Shown: positions 56-43,666, counted from the first letter of the stretch. The stretch: DNA of 43,666 nucleotides from a virus (IMGVR_UViG_3300045988_028451:1-43666), one strand, 5' to 3'. Made by a program: numbers and translations. Notes: a model not told the origin generated them from the sequence alone.

Positions 56-66
56 TGGCGCATAAC
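1..66 (+). mobile_element. intein, C-terminal splicing segment (continuation of 42781..43666)
   Basis: VYDLIDVEDGNRFLIASDSGFLVAHN followed by Cys matches intein blocks F/G with terminal His-Asn and a +1 Cys. Confidence 0.75.
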
Positions 67-927
67 TGCGAGCTTGGCCTCGGCTACGAGGGCGGCGTTG
101 GAGCGTTCGTTACGTTTGCTAAAAACCTAGGTCTTGACCTTATTGAGATGGCAAAAACAATGGACGGTACATTCCCGGACCATATCTGGTCGGCCACTGC
201 ACGCGGGTACGAGTGGGCGCGTATTCAGGAAGCCAAGCGACCACCGCATCCCGGTGAAAAGGATGACCGACCATCATATATTCTGGACAAGAAAGTGTGG
301 CGCACATGTGATGCAATCAAGCATATGTGGCGCGAGTCACACCCGGAAACAGTAGCGTTCTGGCGCGACCTTAAAGACGGAATTTTAGCCGCTGTTCGTA
401 ATCCTGGTCGTGAATTTTGGGCCGGGGCACACTTGCGCCGGAATGGTGAAAGGGCTATCCGCATATGGCGTACCGTAGAATTTGATTCGTCGGGCAGGAA
501 GGTTCCTGGCTGGTGGTTGTGTATGGAGTTGCCGTCAGGCCGTATCCTCTCGTATCCGGGAATCGGCGTTAGTGTGACAAAGGAAACAGACGAAGATGGA
601 CGGGTAAACACGAATGTGCGAATCAAGTACCAAGGTGAAAACCAGTTAACCCGCCAATGGACTACCCTGTACACACACGGCGGCAAAGCCTGCGAAAACA
701 TTGTTCAGGCGCTGTGCCGTGATTTACTCGCATATGCGATGATTAATGTTGAGGGTGGCGGGTATCCCATCGTGCTTTCGGTACACGATGAACTGGTATG
801 TGAAACTCCAGATACGCCGGATTACACGGTGCCTGAACTGGAAAAATTAATGTGTGCGTTGCCAGAGTGGGCGGGGGGGTTCCCTCTTGTAGCGGAAGGT
901 GCGGAGATGAAGCGCTATGCTAAGTAA
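1..927 (+). CDS. DNA polymerase I (family A), C-terminal part; continuation of the gene starting at 41440
   Basis: Frame is continuous with the 41440 ORF across the junction; after the intein end (HN at 61-66, Cys at 67-69) come ELGLGYEGG (motif B) and VHDELV (motif C); stop at 925-927. Confidence 0.85.
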   Translation: MDVEDGNRFLIASDSGFLVAHNCELGLGYEGGVGAFVTFAKNLGLDLIEMAKTMDGTFPDHIWSATARGYEWARIQEAKRPPHPGEKDDRPSYILDKKVWRTCDAIKHMWRESHPETVAFWRDLKDGILAAVRNPGREFWAGAHLRRNGERAIRIWRTVEFDSSGRKVPGWWLCMELPSGRILSYPGIGVSVTKETDEDGRVNTNVRIKYQGENQLTRQWTTLYTHGGKACENIVQALCRDLLAYAMINVEGGGYPIVLSVHDELVCETPDTPDYTVPELEKLMCALPEWAGGFPLVAEGAEMKRYAK

Positions 928-12400: not shown

Positions 12401-12789
12401 TCATTGTGGAAAACAACAACGTGTTCAGCGAGTCGTTTATATTGTGAGAAAAGAGTATTCAGGTTCTCTTTATTAAATTCATCGTCGAGACTCCAACCGT
12501 TAACCAGTTCAAGCGCTAACTGGCGGTTAAGGTCCGTTGCGGCGTCTTCCATCTTGATGTTGTATTCCGAGAAATCTTTCAGTTCCTCGCATTTATCACG
12601 AAGCGGTTTCAATTTACCTAATGCCGCGCGGTACGCAAGTGTAAACGCCCTCATAGCTTTAACGGCAACGTCTGCCTCCGGTGAAACAACGTTCAGCCAT
12701 TCCCCTGAATCGGTGCCGTCTTTCAGTGGTATCGGCATACGGGCGCCTTTTTCTGCCTCAGCTTCGTAATAAAAATCAGAAAGTTTCAT
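12373..12789 (-). CDS. tail assembly chaperone (G-like)
   Basis: 138 aa ORF immediately upstream of tape measure gene, ends GAA AAG TAG. Confidence 0.55.
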   Translation of the reverse strand: MKLSDFYYEAEAEKGARMPIPLKDGTDSGEWLNVVSPEADVAVKAMRAFTLAYRAALGKLKPLRDKCEELKDFSEYNIKMEDAATDLNRQLALELVNGWSLDDEFNKENLNTLFSQYKRLAEHVVVFHNEQLHQLQEK

Positions 12790-12897
12790 TCTTTAATCCT
12801 TTGGTTAAGAGGTTACAGGTTAATGGTAAATGCGCCAGACGGGAACCACCCGCTTTTCGTGTGCGACACTAGGCGCAAAATTATTCTATCACACTAC

Positions 12898-12929
12898 TTG
12901 CGCACCCCAACATAATAGGATACTATTCA
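12898..12929 (+). promoter_or_regulatory. sigma70-like promoter (TTGCGC-N17-TACTAT) with embedded palindromic operator AATAGGATACTATT
   Basis: -35 at 12898-12903, -10 at 12921-12926, GGAG RBS and ATG at 12968 downstream; same element recurs six more times. Confidence 0.5.
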
Positions 12930-12967
12930 CTTACACCAACAATGTTAACTCAAACAGGAGCTACACC

Positions 12968-13159
12968 ATGACAGGTATTACTATGTTCTTCTTAATCATT
13001 ATCGTTTTAGTTTATTTTATCCCGTTTTTAGTGGCCCATATGCGGGGTCATAAAGCGAAATTAGCGATATTCATGGCCAATCTGTTTCTTGGCTGGGTTC
13101 TGCTGCCGTGGGTATTTATTTTAATCTGGGCTTGCAACTCGAATGTCAAAGAGAAGTGA
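12968..13159 (+). CDS. superinfection immunity-like small membrane protein
   Basis: 63 aa, two hydrophobic helices and FLGW...WxxxLIWA pattern resembling the Imm_superinfect family. Confidence 0.55.
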   Translation: MTGITMFFLIIIVLVYFIPFLVAHMRGHKAKLAIFMANLFLGWVLLPWVFILIWACNSNVKEK

Positions 13160-13198
13160 GCTAGTATAGGACAAATCCTAAACACGAGGAAGTAAAGC

Positions 13199-22043: not shown

Positions 22044-22565
22044 ATGGTTACTACAGTAATTACTTTCCCTGCGTATGTAGGGGCGAAAATATGCAGGGCT
22101 AAAAATGATGTTCGCTACTATTTGAACGCTTTTTACATAGACCCTGAAGGATTGATAGTGTCTACGGACGGTCATAGATTGTTCTGCGACAATGTGAAGA
22201 CCAACGTTGAGAAAGGGACTCTCATAGACATCAAAGGGAGAGAGCCTTCTAAATTTAACTACGCGGAGGTAAACCACGACAACGGCAGTGTATCTTTCTA
22301 TGACGATAATCGTGCGCTTATATGTACACTTCCGGTAGATGTTGTAGAAGGAAACTTTCCTGACTGGAGACGCGTGGCGCACATCACACCGGGTGTTGTC
22401 GACAGTATAGGGTTCACCCTGCGTTATTTGGCAGACGCGTACAAGATTTCTAAGGCATACAAAAATGAAATTGCTCGTTTTGATTTCCAGGACCAAACCA
22501 GAGGATGCAAAATACAATTTTCAAACACGGCCTTTATGGTGTTAATGCCTGCGCGATTTAAATAA
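22044..22565 (+). CDS. truncated beta sliding clamp (DnaN-like) protein
   Basis: 173 aa with DVRYYLN, TDGHRL, GNFPDWRRV and C-terminal VLMPARF, which I recall as matching conserved beta-clamp segments (DVRYYLNG, ATDGHRLA, GRFPDYRRV, VVMPMRL); own promoter and terminator; opposite strand to neighbours; AT-rich by eye. Confidence 0.6.
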   Translation: MVTTVITFPAYVGAKICRAKNDVRYYLNAFYIDPEGLIVSTDGHRLFCDNVKTNVEKGTLIDIKGREPSKFNYAEVNHDNGSVSFYDDNRALICTLPVDVVEGNFPDWRRVAHITPGVVDSIGFTLRYLADAYKISKAYKNEIARFDFQDQTRGCKIQFSNTAFMVLMPARFK

Positions 22566-22569
22566 AACT

Positions 22570-22593
22570 AAGGCCCCATTATGGGGCCTTTTA
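22570..22593. terminator. bidirectional rho-independent terminator
   Basis: GGCCCC-ATTAT-GGGGCC hairpin followed by TTTTAT; between convergent genes. Confidence 0.7.
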
Positions 22594-23052
22594 TCATCCT
22601 GGTTTAGAGACCTTCGCCGCTTTGCTTACGGCCTCCGCACCATCGGCATCAGTAACTTTAACGAAGTATTCACCAGCCGCATTAACAGTCAGAGACAGAG
22701 CCTCTTCCGGGACGTTCACCACTTCCTTCCCGTCTTTGTACCAGGTCAGTACATACGGCGCTTTACCCGCCTTAACTTCGACAGTGATGGTGGCGCTACC
22801 GTCGACCAGCTCGGTGTCTTTCGGTTGCACAGAGAAATACACATCGCCAGCATCTGCCAGATACGGAATCTCATAAAGCATACCTGCCGCTGGAAGTGCA
22901 ATACCGGTTTTATCTGCAAACGGCATATCATCTACCGGCGTACCCAGTACACTTTCGTCCTCAATAAATACCACGTTCTCACCAGAGCCAAACACGCGGG
23001 CGTACTGGACTACGCGTCGCGACGGTACATCAGTTACTTTGAAAAAGCCCAT
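22594..23052 (-). CDS. Ig-like domain-containing protein (possible head decoration)
   Basis: C-terminal YVLTWYKDGKEV ... GEYFVKVTDADG resembles an Ig-like domain. Confidence 0.5.
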   Translation of the reverse strand: MGFFKVTDVPSRRVVQYARVFGSGENVVFIEDESVLGTPVDDMPFADKTGIALPAAGMLYEIPYLADAGDVYFSVQPKDTELVDGSATITVEVKAGKAPYVLTWYKDGKEVVNVPEEALSLTVNAAGEYFVKVTDADGAEAVSKAAKVSKPG

Positions 23053-23055
23053 AAA

Positions 23056-23679
23056 CTAAACCTCTTTCATTGAGTTAATCTTACGTAAGACGCCTTCGAA
23101 AAGGCGTGGGTCTATGCTATCGCAAAGACCTTTGTATTCATATGCTAATTCAATTTTTCTATGAAACCATGCTACGTGTGCCTCTTGAGCGGTTTCGTAA
23201 GCGCCTATTTGTTCAGATACGCCATCCACGGATACTTGAGCGATGAATCTTTTCTTTTGTTTATGGAAATGTACGCCGAGTGGGTGTTCGCCTCGAAGAG
23301 CGTCGTGGGCTGTTAGGAAAGTATTGAGGGATTTAGGGATGAAAACACAGTTAGAAGCATCGTAAACCTTATTTCCCGGGTTAAGTAAATCCTTATCTAT
23401 CTGCCACCCAGGTACATAAAAATCATCAAACCAGACCTTGAAATTACTGAACACCAACCAATCGTCCGACACGCGGCAACCTATATAAGTTCTGTTTCTT
23501 TGCTGCCATTTCTTGTCGTAGCACCTCTTTAACATGTTCTTCCATACGGCGTAGGACGCTATATGCACCCCTCCGCAACTTATTGGTGAAACATCGTTAA
23601 TACCCACACCAAAAACAATTCCCATATTAAACCCTATAAGAAAACCCCATGAAGATTGGTCGATGCCAGAGATAGGCAT
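23056..23679 (-). CDS. AP2-domain homing-endonuclease-like protein
   Basis: N-terminal SYAVWKNMLKRC motif shared with phage HNH-type endonucleases plus AP2-like GVHFHKQKKRFIAQVSVDG...AYETAQEAHVAW; gene is visibly more AT-rich than flanking genes. Confidence 0.55.
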   Translation of the reverse strand: MPISGIDQSSWGFLIGFNMGIVFGVGINDVSPISCGGVHIASYAVWKNMLKRCYDKKWQQRNRTYIGCRVSDDWLVFSNFKVWFDDFYVPGWQIDKDLLNPGNKVYDASNCVFIPKSLNTFLTAHDALRGEHPLGVHFHKQKKRFIAQVSVDGVSEQIGAYETAQEAHVAWFHRKIELAYEYKGLCDSIDPRLFEGVLRKINSMKEV

Positions 23680-23749
23680 ACCTTCATGGGGTTATATTCT
23701 TTCTCTATTTTTAGTAGTTCACCGACCAAAGCTAGCTACTAGATATACT

Positions 23750-24826
23750 TTATACCGACCTAAGATATTCAGCAACCCTGTTATCTAACGCCGCCATCTC
23801 CTTCAAGGTTAAAGGTCTACCAAAAGCGTCGACGGATATTACCCGGAATTCCTCTGGGGATATCCCACTATTCCTGAATATAGCACCGCGGGTAGGTCCG
23901 AGTGCTTCATCCACGAACCATGCCGGTTGCTGTTTCAGGAACTCGTAATAGGTGGTGTCCGCGCTTACCTGCATACCGCCGTCCGCACCCTTAGCCGCGC
24001 GTTTTGCGCCTTTATCGAGGAAGTCGAACTCCGAACTGATTACAGGCGCGGTGGTGCTTCGGCAATTAGGATGCGCTGGTGGCATCGGCCCTTTACCAAT
24101 TTCCCACGTCATTCCGTCTCTGGCCCTGCAAATCGTGCTGGTGCGGCTGTCCAGCGTTGACACCCACTCGTATTTCTCGATGATGTCGTCGTTCCGGCGG
24201 TACGTCTCGTTACGGGCTTCATTGGATACGTGAGACAGCGCGGTGCGGATTACGGTAGCCGCGTTACGTTCAGAGATGTCAGCCAGTCCGCCAGCGCCTA
24301 CGACATTCTTAACAATCTGTCGTGTTGTCTGACCTTGTACGAACCCCATCTTAACGCCGGTTACGAGACGTGCTACTTCGGTTTCACCCCATCCCGACAT
24401 CAGCTTAGTGAAATCAACAGGCTTGTCGCTTAATGATAAGGGTTGAAACTCGGCAGCGGACCACACCTGTTCGGCGGTAGGCGTAACAAATTCCGCATCT
24501 ACGTTGGTGGTCAGTGTCTTTACATTCCACTCGGCCTCATACGCCGCCAGTTCCATAAGGTCTTCTGTCAGCTTTGTTTGCCAATCGCCGGTAAGTCCGG
24601 TTAGCGCTTCTTCAAGGTCGAGTAACAGTTTATTCAGTCGCGCAGTGCTCCGCCCGTCGTCACCGAATAACAGCACCCGCCGTTTTATTTCGTCCCGCAT
24701 CTCCTTAATGAACGGCGCGAGGTCTTTCACCTCACCGGATGCAGTGCGTTGCAGCCATATCTGGTGGCTGATTAGAGATGTAAGTAAGCTCATAGATAAA
24801 CCCTGTGACGCTAAAGTTAATAGCAT
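23750..24826 (-). CDS. head morphogenesis protein (Mu F-like / SPP1 gp7-like)
   Basis: Conserved HPNCRST-type motif (PPAHPNCRSTTAPV) and position directly downstream of portal gene. Confidence 0.75.
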   Translation of the reverse strand: MLLTLASQGLSMSLLTSLISHQIWLQRTASGEVKDLAPFIKEMRDEIKRRVLLFGDDGRSTARLNKLLLDLEEALTGLTGDWQTKLTEDLMELAAYEAEWNVKTLTTNVDAEFVTPTAEQVWSAAEFQPLSLSDKPVDFTKLMSGWGETEVARLVTGVKMGFVQGQTTRQIVKNVVGAGGLADISERNAATVIRTALSHVSNEARNETYRRNDDIIEKYEWVSTLDSRTSTICRARDGMTWEIGKGPMPPAHPNCRSTTAPVISSEFDFLDKGAKRAAKGADGGMQVSADTTYYEFLKQQPAWFVDEALGPTRGAIFRNSGISPEEFRVISVDAFGRPLTLKEMAALDNRVAEYLRSV

Positions 24827-30279: not shown

Positions 30280-30765
30280 TCAACCTTTCACCGCGCGCCC
30301 GATAGCCTCCGCCTCCTGCCACGGCTTACCGTCGAACAGCGCAAGACGCCCGGCGGTACGGCGACGCAGACCGAGTAATGGTTTGCCGTTCTGGTTGATG
30401 AACAGCGCCAGCTTAGCCCGCAGTGTCGCAATATCACCAGAACGCAGAGCCTTACCGGTTCCGGTAGTAGCCGCAATCACACCGGCACCCGCGTTATAGA
30501 CCAGGTCACACACAGCGTCGAACTGCGCCTGTGTCAGGGAGTGGTGTGCTGCCGCATCAACCGCAGCTACGGCCTTAGCCATATCGCGATTCAGTAACAG
30601 GAGGCCTTGGCCAGGGGTGATGGTCTTACCTTCATACACATGAGGGCCATAGCTTCCGTAGCCTATGGTTAAGTATTTTTCCGAAGGTGTCGCGCGGTAG
30701 GCGGTCCCGCGGAAATCTTCCCAAGCCGCAGTAAACTTGAGGCCGTTGTCACTCATCGAGCGCAT
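30280..30765 (-). CDS. endolysin, GH24 lysozyme-like
   Basis: WEDFRGTAYR...TIGYG and LTQAQFDAVCDLVYNAG ... GLRRRTAGRLALF resemble lysozyme motifs (as in P22 gp19 / T4 e); AAGGAG RBS. Confidence 0.75.
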   Translation of the reverse strand: MRSMSDNGLKFTAAWEDFRGTAYRATPSEKYLTIGYGSYGPHVYEGKTITPGQGLLLLNRDMAKAVAAVDAAAHHSLTQAQFDAVCDLVYNAGAGVIAATTGTGKALRSGDIATLRAKLALFINQNGKPLLGLRRRTAGRLALFDGKPWQEAEAIGRAVKG

Positions 30766-31318
30766 AAAGAGAACTCCTTGTGGTATTTATCTCGGGCTTC
30801 GCTAGCTACTAACTCAGCGAACTCAAGGTCATCGAAGTAACCGAAAAACTTGCGCACACCTTTTTGCAAACGGATTCTCACCATCCATTTCCCTTGCTGT
30901 CTATGGACGCCTGATACTCCGCTGGTGTTGTTGCGCGATAACCCACGGTTGCGGTTGTTGTCCTGCGAGTCACATTCTCTCAGGTTACAAAACCTATTAT
31001 CGTCTCTTACCCCGTTCCTGTGGTCTATCTGCCCGCTGGGCCACTCTCCTGTTATATAGAACCATGCAAGCCTGTGTTGCCGTAGGTATTTACCTTTGAG
31101 CATGATTACTTTATACCTGTCCGGGTCTCTCCCGTCTGGCACAGTCCTTTAGGGGCTTTTGAACTAACCGTCTTAAGCCACGTGAATAACCCCGTGTCAG
31201 GGTTGTAATCTAAAACGCTACGAACATAGTCACGGCTAAGTTCATTATCTGAAATGTTTCGAGACACGCTTATGTCCTCCGTATGACAGCCACGCCTGTC
31301 GAATCTGACGCAGCGCAA
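30753..31318 (-). CDS. HNH-AP2 homing endonuclease gene disrupted by a -1 frame change (two ORFs 31106..31318 and 30753..31142)
   Basis: N-terminal piece has DYNPDTGLFTWLK...KAPKG; second piece in the -1 frame has KGKYLRQHRLAWFYITGEWPSGQIDHRNGVRDDNRFCNLRECDSQDNNRN (HNH) and an AP2-like domain; homologous intact proteins are contiguous. Confidence 0.55.
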
Positions 31319-31893: not shown

Positions 31894-32232
31894 TTATTTG
31901 TGTCTCCAGATGTATTGTCGTCTCTGTGGCTTCGTCGGAATATCATCGTACCCCAGCGATTTCCAGTAATTAAATAACCTATTTGCGATTGCTGCGCGTT
32001 CCTGTGTTTTAAACTCACCCAGGTTAACGGCCTTCCCGTTCTGGAACCCGCAGGCGCGGACTGCTTTGCGTCTGGCTTGAATCTCAGGGTACAGCGCGTT
32101 ACGGCGGCGCTTGTATATTCGGGTGTTCGTTCTCGGTGACAGCGGCGCAAGGCCGCTTCGTTTCAGGATGTCAGTTGCAAGGCTCATATTCCGAGAATCT
32201 CGCGGGCCATTTCTTCTGTAACTTTCGAACAA
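31894..32232 (-). CDS. hypothetical protein
   Basis: ORF; probable start at internal ATG 32187. Confidence 0.4.
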   Translation of the reverse strand: MFESYRRNGPRDSRNMSLATDILKRSGLAPLSPRTNTRIYKRRRNALYPEIQARRKAVRACGFQNGKAVNLGEFKTQERAAIANRLFNYWKSLGYDDIPTKPQRRQYIWRHK

Positions 32233-41439: not shown

Positions 41440-43666
41440 ATGAGTTACCTGTTCTTAGACTTTGAAACATTCTCCGAAGCCGATTTAAAGAAAGTCGGCT
41501 CCTACGCTTACGCCGAGCATCCAACTACCGAAGTGCTTATCTGTACATACGCTTTTGACGACGAGCCTGTGCAGGTGTGGGATTGCACCGACGGCAGTGA
41601 CATGCCGGGCGATTTGCACCGCGCGTTACGTCGTCTGGTTAAGCCTAACAGTCGCATTAAGATGGTGTGGCACAACGGCTCAATGTTCGACAGGCTCATA
41701 ATGAAGCACTGCTGGGGCTTTGATATTCCGGTACGCAACACCATTGATACGATGATTTGGGCGTTTCGTCATGCATTGCCGGGTTCACTTGACTCATTGT
41801 GCGAAGTGCTGGGCGTGTCTGCTGACAATGCGAAGGATAAGCGTGGCAAGGCGCTGATTCAGCGTTTCTCTAAACCGACACCGAAGAACTACAAAATCAG
41901 ACGCTACACCGCCGAGACGCACCCTGATGAATGGGCGTTGTTCATCAAGTACGCCGTGAGCGATATTACCGCGATGCGTGAGGTATTCCATAAGCTGCCA
42001 CGTTGGGGTAACTCGGAGTTCGAGGACCGTGTACTGGAACTGGACCAGTTAATCAACGACCGCGGGTTTAAGGTTGACGTGGCACTGGCAGAAGCCGCGA
42101 TTGAAGCCGTGGAGAAACACAAAGCGCAGTTACAGGAAGAGGCCCAACGCAAATACGGCGGCTCGCTTACTGGTAAAGACTTTCTGCCGATTCTGCGCGA
42201 ACTTGCCCCTGCGCACCGAATCCACAACGTGCAGAAGTCAACGCTGAATGACCTGCTGGCCGACGATGATTTACCGGACGACGCACGCACGATTATCGAA
42301 ATGCGCCTCGGGGCCGCGTCCACGGCGTCCACGAAATATAACCCGCTGCTGCGGGGCCGCTCTTCGGACGACCGCCGTCGCGGTTGCTTGCAGTACGGTG
42401 GGGCAAAACGTACTCTGCGATGGGCAGGTAAAGGCTTCCAGCCGCAGAACCTGGCACGCGGTTACTATCATGATGATGAGCTGGATAAAGGCATTTCAGC
42501 GTTACTTAAGGGCCGCGCCCATCGCCGTTTTGATGTAGCCAAACTAACGGCATCTACTGTGCGTAGCTGCATAATACCGGAAGCCGGGCATAAGTTTGTC
42601 GTCGCCGATTACTCTAACGTTGAAGGCCGCGGGCTTGCGTGGCTGGCAGGTGAAGAAACCGCGCTCGATACGTTCCGCGCCGGACTGGATATTTACTGTG
42701 TAACCGCAGGCAAGATGTTCGGTATGGACCCTGATGACATTAAGAAAGAACGTAAAGACTTGCGCCAGATTGGTAAAGCGTGCCTTCACCGTCATACCCA
42801 GGTTTTGACCGATGGCGGATTTAAGGATATTATGGCGGTTACATCAACAGATAAAGTATGGAGCGGTGAAAAATGGGTGAATACAAAAGGCGCGCACCTT
42901 ATGGGGTGGAAACCGGTAATAAATGTGGACGGGGTGCTAATGACCGAAGATCACAAAATCTTGGCGCATTCCTGGAAGCAGGCAAAGCAACTCGCTTCAA
43001 ACAGATATATGATGGGCCTAGCCCTGGAGAGAGGTATGGACGCTTGGTTATCCTGCGCGAGTTGCCAAAACGACAAGGCCAAAGACAACTACTCGTCCAA
43101 TGTGATTGCGGAGAGATGCCGGGGCGGGTCTATTATGACAACGTCAGAGCGGGTAAAACCACTCAATGCAACCGCTGCGCCCTTGAAGCAACAAAAAAAT
43201 ATCGTAAACAGTATTTCTGCTACGAAGACGCAATGCCGGATGATGCACACAGAACGCGATTACTCAACCGGCTGTCAGCGGCGATCACGCGAACAACAAG
43301 CCCCAGGGATAAGGGTTATAAAAACTATGGGGCAAGAGGCATCACGGTATTCGACCAGTGGAGGACTGATAAAAGGTCTTTTCTTAGATATGTTCAAACT
43401 CTGGAAGGCTGGGATGACCCGAACCTCGAAATGGATAGAATCGACACAGACGGTAACTACGAACCTGGAAACATTCGGTTTGTCAGCCGTTCTGAAAACT
43501 GCCGAAACAGACGGCAAATACCCGAGCTTCAACGAAAGTATGATGCAGCCGTTGCCCGCATTGCTGAACTTGAGCGGGAAATTAACCTACTGCGAGCCGG
43601 TGTACGACCTGATTGATGTGGAAGACGGCAACCGTTTTCTTATAGCCTCAGACTCTGGCTTTCTTG
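41440..43666 (+). CDS. DNA polymerase I (family A) with 3-prime to 5-prime exonuclease domain, N-terminal part plus intein; continues at 1..927
   Basis: Exo motif LFLDFETFS; Pol A motif A ADYSNVEGR; frame stays open to the window end and continues across the junction (1033 codons including intein). Confidence 0.85.
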   Translation, partial: MSYLFLDFETFSEADLKKVGSYAYAEHPTTEVLICTYAFDDEPVQVWDCTDGSDMPGDLHRALRRLVKPNSRIKMVWHNGSMFDRLIMKHCWGFDIPVRNTIDTMIWAFRHALPGSLDSLCEVLGVSADNAKDKRGKALIQRFSKPTPKNYKIRRYTAETHPDEWALFIKYAVSDITAMREVFHKLPRWGNSEFEDRVLELDQLINDRGFKVDVALAEAAIEAVEKHKAQLQEEAQRKYGGSLTGKDFLPILRELAPAHRIHNVQKSTLNDLLADDDLPDDARTIIEMRLGAASTASTKYNPLLRGRSSDDRRRGCLQYGGAKRTLRWAGKGFQPQNLARGYYHDDELDKGISALLKGRAHRRFDVAKLTASTVRSCIIPEAGHKFVVADYSNVEGRGLAWLAGEETALDTFRAGLDIYCVTAGKMFGMDPDDIKKERKDLRQIGKACLHRHTQVLTDGGFKDIMAVTSTDKVWSGEKWVNTKGAHLMGWKPVINVDGVLMTEDHKILAHSWKQAKQLASNRYMMGLALERGMDAWLSCASCQNDKAKDNYSSNVIAERCRGGSIMTTSERVKPLNATAAPLKQQKNIVNSISATKTQCRMMHTERDYSTGCQRRSREQQAPGIRVIKTMGQEASRYSTSGGLIKGLFLDMFKLWKAGMTRTSKWIESTQTVTTNLETFGLSAVLKTAETDGKYPSFNESMMQPLPALLNLSGKLTYCEPVYDLIDVEDGNRFLIASDSGFL
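42781..43666 (+). mobile_element. intein inserted in polymerase motif B (O-helix), N-terminal and central part (ends at base 66 after the junction)
   Basis: N-extein ...RQIGKA; insert starts CLHRHTQVLTDGG (block A-like), has TEDH (block B-like) and ends ...VAHN + Cys; 299 codons in total. Confidence 0.75.
42873..43616 (+). CDS. HNH endonuclease encoded in an alternate frame inside the intein
   Basis: In-frame stop at 42867-42869, GGAG RBS then ATG at 42873; product has YGRLVILRE, CDCG...CNRC and YKNYGARGITVFDQW...DRIDTDGNYEPGNIRFVSRSENCRNRR, typical of phage HNH endonucleases. Confidence 0.7.
   Translation: MGEYKRRAPYGVETGNKCGRGANDRRSQNLGAFLEAGKATRFKQIYDGPSPGERYGRLVILRELPKRQGQRQLLVQCDCGEMPGRVYYDNVRAGKTTQCNRCALEATKKYRKQYFCYEDAMPDDAHRTRLLNRLSAAITRTTSPRDKGYKNYGARGITVFDQWRTDKRSFLRYVQTLEGWDDPNLEMDRIDTDGNYEPGNIRFVSRSENCRNRRQIPELQRKYDAAVARIAELEREINLLRAGVRPD

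Follow-up and report, generated by a model that had tools for sequence, protein, structure and literature searches.

Does the AT-rich, endonuclease-like gene that separates two structural genes of this phage belong to a set of homing-type elements that entered the same genome repeatedly, or is it an ordinary accessory gene of the head module? The original prediction held that the window (here, the whole 43,666-nt stretch of viral DNA analysed, IMGVR_UViG_3300045988_028451) carries three HNH/AP2-type endonuclease-like genes, at 23056-23679 (gene 1), 30753-31318 (gene 2) and 42873-43616 (gene 3), each interrupting an otherwise conserved gene order in a manner consistent with repeated invasion. 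As its first and last 55 nt are identical and form an exact direct terminal repeat (1-55 = 43612-43666), the window is a complete, circularly assembled genome, which megablast places among the Kagunavirus (Guernseyvirinae) coliphages with Escherichia phage fPoEco01 as the closest record (~96% identity over the shared parts). Its gene order is that of fPoEco01, with terminase, portal, MuF, decoration, capsid and tail genes followed by helicase, polymerase and primase genes and then by early genes, holins and endolysin, the polymerase gene and its intein spanning the window ends.

All three predicted genes exist, and because a tblastn search of the window with the three proteins (E≤10) found no extra paralogues or remnants, and hence no fourth copy, three is the right count for such proteins. 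The reading frames proposed for genes 1 and 3 hold, whereas gene 2 does not exist as the single ORF 30753-31318. Synteny comparison with insert-free relatives uncovered empty alleles at sites 1, 2 and 3, and each of the three junctions is uninterrupted in most relatives, so that the claim of interrupted gene orders is borne out; rather than recurring in all related genomes at the same positions and with native composition, the genes are sporadic at sites 1 and 2 and present in some relatives and absent from others at site 3. Base composition sets only one of them apart: the GC content is 0.426 for gene 1, 0.486 for gene 2 and 0.496 for gene 3, against 0.508 for the genome, which places gene 1 in the 2nd percentile among 624-nt windows of the genome and leaves genes 2 and 3 near native.

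Gene 1 at the junction of the MuF-like and decoration genes

The longest ORF of gene 1 (23056..23679, minus strand, 207 codons) is free-standing and lies, visibly AT-rich and as predicted, between a MuF-like gene (23750-24826; Phage_Mu_F, Pfam E=5e-13) and an Ig/Hoc-like decoration gene (22594-23052). Translation probably begins further in, at the ATG at 23625, for a product of 189 aa: this codon is favoured because most of 39 homologues begin there, because residues 1-16 of the longer form are disordered in AF2 and because the short form is annotated in two GenBank records. The protein has no match in Pfam, even at E≤0.1, and a single-sequence search of the PDB returned nothing meaningful and no sequence-level match to solved nucleases, while PHROG 953 ('HNH endonuclease') was matched with E=3e-79. 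The gene 1 family profile matched AP2/ERF proteins (E=1e-4), and this similarity, together with a fold of three-stranded sheet plus helix, identifies an AP2 DNA-binding domain (PF00847) in gene 1. The predicted AP2 domain is thus seen directly in gene 1, and among the three genes in gene 1 only. The position of the canonical catalytic His is taken by a Lys, within a D95-K96-D97 triplet that is invariant in 39 sequences. Homologues of gene 1 occur in unrelated contexts in T4-like and other phages.

Among the related phage records that match the flanks, gene 1 is present in 7 of 170. At the empty site the MuF stop overlaps the start of the decoration gene, and the insert consists of a 70-nt AT-rich spacer that extends from the MuF stop to gene 1 (23680..23749, minus strand; absent from empty-site genomes in the junction alignment), of gene 1 itself and of a 3' end that recreates the ribosome-binding site of the decoration gene. 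No sigma-70-like promoter above shuffled expectation was found ahead of gene 1 in the spacer. The adjoining 3' end of the MuF-like head-morphogenesis gene (23750..23900, minus strand, extent approximate) is recoded and travels with gene 1: in pairwise binned comparisons the last ~150 nt of MuF were 30-68% identical to gene-less phages, as opposed to 84-99% further upstream, and the block 23000-23900 was 100% identical to phages 536P11 and K1ind3, with other flanks at 80-93%. At site 1, as at site 2 below, the element and its adjacent tract are more alike between carriers than is the rest of the genome, which is the signature of co-conversion, and presence is sporadic at one fixed site among close relatives. 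Judged from the sequence, the pattern at site 1 is the footprint that would be expected of a free-standing homing endonuclease gene moving with a putatively cleavage-resistant version of its target.

The same junction is occupied in Salmonella phage pink by a homologue 52% identical to gene 1, and tblastn aligns all 207 gene 1 residues to it in one piece. This locus (1801-2421 of phage pink) is annotated as a 75-aa hypothetical protein only, and the homologue is probably under-annotated or has a different start. On the other side of the decoration gene, which is closed by a strong predicted hairpin-T-run terminator (22570-22590, minus strand), lies an AT-rich ORF on the opposite strand (22044-22565, plus strand, GC 0.431) that encodes a truncated sliding-clamp-like protein (PHROG 3007/947). 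The spanin gene flanks it on the side away from the decoration gene. Phages 536P11, K1ind3 and K1H lack this ORF, SHAK7693 has the same gene between portal and MuF instead, and it looks like a mobile 'moron'.

Gene 2 at the holin-endolysin junction

Of the HNH-AP2 gene predicted between holin and endolysin, the HNH part stands and the extent does not. Gene 2 (30753..31267, minus strand) is an HNH_3-type endonuclease gene (Pfam HNH_3, PF13392, E=8.6e-13; PHROG 99, E=9e-51) with a canonical motif (IDH / DH...N...N) that includes the catalytic His, and is the only one of the three to match a curated HNH model. The interval 30753-31318 is divided between ORFs 31106-31318 and 30753-31142, which differ in frame, and tblastn likewise splits the region into two pieces in different frames; the N-terminal piece stops at 31106, and the HNH and C-terminal module reside in ORF 30753-31142. 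Alignment to the intact reference gene, that of the 171-aa protein of phage SHAK7858, puts the homologous start at the GTG at 31267 and not at 31318, and shows that the break is a 1-bp loss, the window being without one G of the GGG run at 31146..31148 (minus strand; CCTAAAGGGACTG in relatives, CCTAAAGGACTG here).

In most related records the holin directly overlaps the endolysin, and the entire holin-HNH-endolysin query is covered by 2 of 173 records. The endolysin of the empty site starts with ...VSRNISDNGL-HFTAAFEGFRG; in carriers it is the HNH gene that opens with VSRNISDNGL..., and the endolysin restarts with MRSMSDNGLKFTAAWEDFRG, written in different codons. The takeover of VSRNISDNGL by the HNH gene places the insertion within the first endolysin codons, and the recoded 5' end of the endolysin with its new start MRSMSDNGLKF (30620..30765, minus strand) is carried with gene 2. 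The element has taken the initiation region of the endolysin and supplies a recoded replacement. The HNH gene and ~130 nt of endolysin are 88-100% identical to those of Salmonella phage dunkel (Jerseyvirus), compared to 32-83% elsewhere and 32-60% for the holins, and the same ~130-nt tract is 62-68% identical to the empty allele of fPoEco01, the gene-less closest relative.

Other insertions have used this place as well. The holin-endolysin junction (30750-31270) is an insertion hotspot in Guernseyvirinae, a second HNH family (~50% identical) being found there in SETP13, AG11, pink and ZCEC5, and an HslV-like protease gene in other Guernseyvirinae. Elsewhere in the window, an ORF at 31894-32232 (minus strand, 112 aa; PHROG 9632, E=2e-55) contains a segment, GFQNGKAVNLGEFKTQERAAIANRLF, that resembles an AP2-type strand-strand-helix, by eye alone.

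Gene 3 and the intein of the DNA polymerase

The ORF of the PolA-type DNA polymerase runs from 41440 to 43666 and continues to 927, encoding 1032 aa that include a 299-residue insert. The N-extein (41440..42780, plus strand) comprises the 3'-5' exonuclease and the first part of the PolA domain, and the C-extein occupies 67..927 (plus strand). Between them lies the intein of 299 codons (42781..43666 then 56-66, plus strand; junctions RQIGKA|CLHRHT ... VAHN|CELGLGY), whose last 11 nt fall at 56-66 because positions 1-55 repeat 43612-43666. The insert sits between RQIGKA and CELGLGYEGG, opens with CLHRHTQVLTDGG..., includes LMTEDH and closes with ...FLVAHN followed by Cys, and the Pfam DNA_pol_A match breaks off at residue 447. 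Relatives without the intein, whose polymerases reach 98.3% identity, lack precisely 897 nt (1200 nt versus 2097 nt in intein-bearing alleles), the insertion being in frame, within a conserved host motif and absent from close homologues. Residues C1, T55..H58, H-N299 and C+1 are invariant in six diverged sequences, with the exception of one SN for HN. With the single intein sequence, Pfam did not detect the Hint model and the PDB search returned nothing meaningful; a splicing-block profile made from the six diverged sequences had inteins only as its top matches (NEQ068, E=4e-5; PI-MtuI, E=0.009; RecA mini-intein, E=0.016). The polymerase is presumed to be spliced at the protein level. Some GenBank records carry the label 'intein-containing DNA polymerase precursor'. 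A group I intron was considered as the polymerase insert and rejected in view of the continuous reading frame and the intein junction residues. Phages with exteins at 76-92% identity share inteins at 97-99%.

Gene 3 is an HNH-like ORF of 247 codons (42873..43616, plus strand) that is nested in this intein, as had been proposed, and is moreover in the -1 frame relative to the polymerase and intein. A GGAG lies 9 nt upstream of its ATG. The A of this start codon is the final base of a Lys codon, and its TG opens the invariant Trp codon of the intein motif W.GE.WV; the same ATG, or a GTG, is present in 9 of the 10 -1-frame loci examined. The hexamer (A/G)TGGGT over the invariant Trp-Val is read as ATG/GTG GGT, giving the conserved N-terminal 'MG' of the HNH ORF family, and purine-rich motif codons upstream of the start resemble a Shine-Dalgarno sequence (42860-42875 in the window; likewise at loci L004, L009, L011, L015, L016 and L031-L033). 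A start built from W.GE.WV is absent in L034 and in the +1-frame loci. Gene 3 would be translated independently of the polymerase.

Codon-position analysis of the polymerase and intein in 11 sequences shows which frame is constrained where. Variable sites of the exteins, and of the splicing blocks at both ends of the intein, fall at third codon positions of the polymerase, whereas across HNH residues 56-220 they fall at HNH third positions, equivalent to polymerase second positions, at 77 of 127 sites, and the statistics change frame exactly at the splicing-block borders. Given this variation at HNH third positions, it is the HNH frame that is under protein-level selection, the polymerase frame there being simply kept open. 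Across the gene 3 ORF the polymerase frame contains no stops and the third frame contains 27, and 0.1% of synonymous HNH recodings leave the polymerase frame open (P=0.001).

The gene 3 protein has no match in Pfam, even at E≤0.1, and matches PHROG 374 (labelled HNH) with E=1e-46. Its structural model (pLDDT 81.5, residues 1-26 disordered) comprises a small beta-barrel, a Cys4 zinc ribbon, a helical region and the motif region. The PDB yielded nothing meaningful in a single-sequence search with gene 3, and a profile search with its family gave nothing beyond a weak similarity to COX5B in the Cys4 zinc ribbon. Genes 1 and 3 are homologous in their core (profile-profile E=0.007), and as their motifs, identified by eye, are clear derivatives of HNH_3 (IDKD..GN..C.F.P..LN in gene 1; MDRID..GNYEPGNIRFVSRSEN in gene 3), both likely belong to the HNH superfamily. 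At the position of the canonical catalytic His, which gene 2 retains, gene 3 has D188 followed by R189, invariant in 44 sequences. Since neither gene 1 nor gene 3 has this His, we regard them as putative nucleases, and speak of DNA cleavage and target sites of the elements in this conditional sense.

How general is the nested arrangement? An out-of-frame HNH ORF at the same intein site of a PolA-type polymerase was present in 20 of 20 related loci (about 10-11 Guernseyvirinae/SO-1-like, 5 distant IMG/VR and 4 from other assemblies), down to 32% identity, and in the distant loci (32-37% identical) it is in the +1 rather than the -1 frame. The gene 3 ORF occurs at ≥80% identity in about 163 GenBank phage records. 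Among the matches listed (40 GenBank records), none annotates a separate endonuclease gene and 39 annotate the polymerase only; an HNH gene is entered for the ORF in the records of Sodalis phage SO-1 and phage SS3e. Metagenome gene callers kept the HNH ORF and left the intein-bearing polymerase uncalled or fragmented (L031-L034). Three of these four contigs end ≤350 nt from the HNH ORF, which suggests assembly breaks caused by presence/absence polymorphism of the intein. A literature search found no description of an out-of-frame gene in the polymerase intein of Jerseyvirus or Kagunavirus. We tentatively entertain, at somewhat less than even odds, a broader reading: rather than being a rare accident, the PolA intein and its -1-frame HNH-like gene may form an obligate mobile unit of two genes, old and widespread in proteobacterial and metagenomic phages, whose endonuclease would always be translated separately, often from a start within W.GE.WV preceded by a Shine-Dalgarno-like sequence. 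Genes 3 and 1 would then represent a His-less (Lys/Arg) branch of HNH proteins with an unexplored catalytic mechanism, and the unit would be largely invisible in annotation.

Origin and significance of the three elements

We consider it probable (roughly 0.8) that this genome was invaded three separate times by homing-type selfish elements. Site occupancy and the identity of element versus flank support the original prediction of repeated invasion at all three sites, and elements that are far more conserved than their flanks bear the signature of horizontal spread into divergent backbones. Elements 1 and 2 would be free-standing homing genes at tight gene junctions, each with about 130-150 nt of recoded neighbour. 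On co-infection, the endonuclease would cut the unoccupied allele at or near the junction, and repair templated by the occupied genome would then bring in the gene along with the recoded tract, the carrier itself being immune because its site is recoded or interrupted. Gene 2 would later have been disabled by its frameshift, unless this is a homopolymer sequencing error. At site 3, the polymerase would be translated straight through the intein, with a splicing domain made of ~90 N-terminal and ~40 C-terminal residues; the ~170 codons between the splicing blocks would serve as an unconstrained, stop-free linker, and the homing endonuclease would be a separate translation product, initiated at a start codon of its own in the linker's -1 frame.

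As these phages are highly mosaic, ordinary recombination could contribute to the block patterns, and the three genes might be ordinary accessory 'morons', inherited vertically with many losses or shuffled by general recombination, with genes 1 and 3 being DNA-binding proteins devoid of catalysis and with no endonuclease-driven mobility. The Lys or Arg that replaces the canonical His in genes 1 and 3, their weak structural resemblance to nucleases, the pervasive mosaicism of the backbone and the presence next door of an unrelated, also sporadic AT-rich moron on the opposite strand (22044-22565) can all be explained in this way; however, the 97-100% identity of the elements within flanks of 76-93% at three separate sites cannot easily be, nor can insertion points that are exact and recur in two genera, a recoded segment of the neighbouring gene that is always attached, the invariance of the K/R residue and the purifying selection on the HNH frame of gene 3, and we hold this explanation to be unlikely. 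Less likely still is that gene 1 acts as a packaging or morphogenesis helper, and hence as a functional part of the head module and not as a selfish gene. HNH proteins do assist terminases in HK97-like phages, and gene 1, part of the late head operon, is the third gene after the terminase, co-oriented and apparently co-transcribed, with no promoter of its own and a terminator only past the decoration gene. Yet it is missing from about 96% of the relatives that share this head module, is AT-rich, possesses an AP2 DNA-binding domain typical of homing endonucleases and has homologues outside any such context in T4-like and other phages, which makes a helper role improbable.

Two further doubts concern single genes within the homing interpretation. 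The disruption of gene 2 reflects either decay after fixation or a homopolymer error of sequencing or assembly, in which case the gene would be intact and active in the real phage, and we rate such an error at only slightly below an even chance: the lesion is a single G in a GGG run, copies of gene 2 at ≥90% identity in 16 database records are all single-piece and intact, so that the window copy is the only disrupted one, and the remainder of the gene is 93-95% identical to intact copies and free of other lesions. On the other hand, decay of homing endonuclease genes is expected from the homing cycle, and no recognisable slippery heptamer exists at the shift site, the reason for which programmed frameshifting was rejected as well. 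Gene 3, in turn, might really be an in-frame endonuclease domain of the intein, its frame difference being an artefact, but this idea draws solely on the general expectation for intein endonucleases and is scarcely credible: it needs two compensating frameshifts, the frames are the same in 11 independent sequences from Guernseyvirinae and at 9 distant loci, metagenomic or genomic, and both the ORF's recurrence at ≥80% identity in GenBank and the frame change of the codon statistics at the splicing-block borders speak against it. An in-frame endonuclease obscured by sequencing errors was therefore rejected, the same frames recurring across related loci.

Phages commonly carry free-standing HNH/AP2 homing genes, and Guernseyvirinae are known to vary in theirs. 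Akin to the free-standing genes of intronless homing (T4 seg/mob, I-HmuI-type HNH, HNH-AP2 fusions), genes 1 and 2 are small ORFs between conserved genes, are sporadic in close relatives, move with a short neighbouring tract unlike that of the empty allele and join an AP2-type module (seen directly for gene 1 only) to a core of HNH type. Unlike those enzymes, gene 1 has a Lys at the position of the general-base His and fails the Pfam HNH models, and gene 2 sits inside the endolysin ORF, whose start it took and for which it supplies a replacement, and is frameshifted here. Homing-type elements of relatives that are absent from the window include an HNH-like gene after the tail-tube gene (fPoEco01, 12559-13191), an HNH gene within the spanin region (fEg-Eco19, 1520-2026) and, also noted in PMC11162368, an intein of ~900 bp in the minor head protein (MuF-like) of fEg-Eco06/KMB36; almost every genome of the group has a different complement of such elements.

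Genes 1 and 2 are thus ordinary for this phage group, whereas the intein with an out-of-frame endonuclease is a little-described arrangement. Out-of-frame homing endonucleases were reported in 2025 in inteins of actinobacteriophages, where they are endonuclease VII-like, reside in other host genes and are described as rare (Gosselin, Arsenault & Gogarten, bioRxiv 10.1101/2025.01.02.630785), and the same group has described an HNH hidden out of frame within a phage methylase (PMC11855218). As in those cases, gene 3 is on the same strand, between the splicing blocks and in another frame, the host frame is free of stops and the distribution suggests ongoing transfer. As opposed to those cases, the host is a PolA-type polymerase of proteobacterial phages (Jerseyvirus, Kagunavirus, Sodalis phage SO-1 and metagenomic phages), the protein is HNH_3-like with a 'DRID' motif and a Cys4 zinc ribbon and apparently not endonuclease VII-like, the nested arrangement is present at every locus examined rather than rare, and in many copies of the PolA intein the start codon is placed on the invariant Trp codon. 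Canonical inteins with in-frame LAGLIDADG or HNH domains share with this one the Cys1, the T..H block, the terminal HN and the +1 Cys, the insertion into a conserved catalytic motif of a replication protein (here PolA) and the presence/absence polymorphism; in contrast to them, gene 3 is no domain of the intein polypeptide, of which the in-frame middle is unconstrained filler. In 'fractured genes', a free-standing endonuclease gene lies between the halves of a split intein (Dassa et al., 2009; PMC2677866). There, as here, an intein and a separately translated endonuclease gene make up one mobile unit, but here the host gene is unsplit and the polymerase frame reads through the endonuclease gene.

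For annotation, these results mean that gene 2 should be flagged as disrupted, that gene 1 should probably be called from 23625, and that the polymerase should be entered as an intein-containing precursor overlapped by a separately read endonuclease gene. Homing elements at these loci explain some of the mosaicism of the group and some of the trouble encountered there in assembly and gene calling. One 43.6-kb genome displays three stages or styles of homing elements, and its polymerase intein extends a known architecture to experimentally tractable phages. As this out-of-frame architecture is also present in well-studied Salmonella and E. coli therapy phages, which can be crossed and engineered, the translation of the endonuclease, the homing of intein and endonuclease as a unit, and the cutting of DNA by a His-less HNH protein have now become testable.
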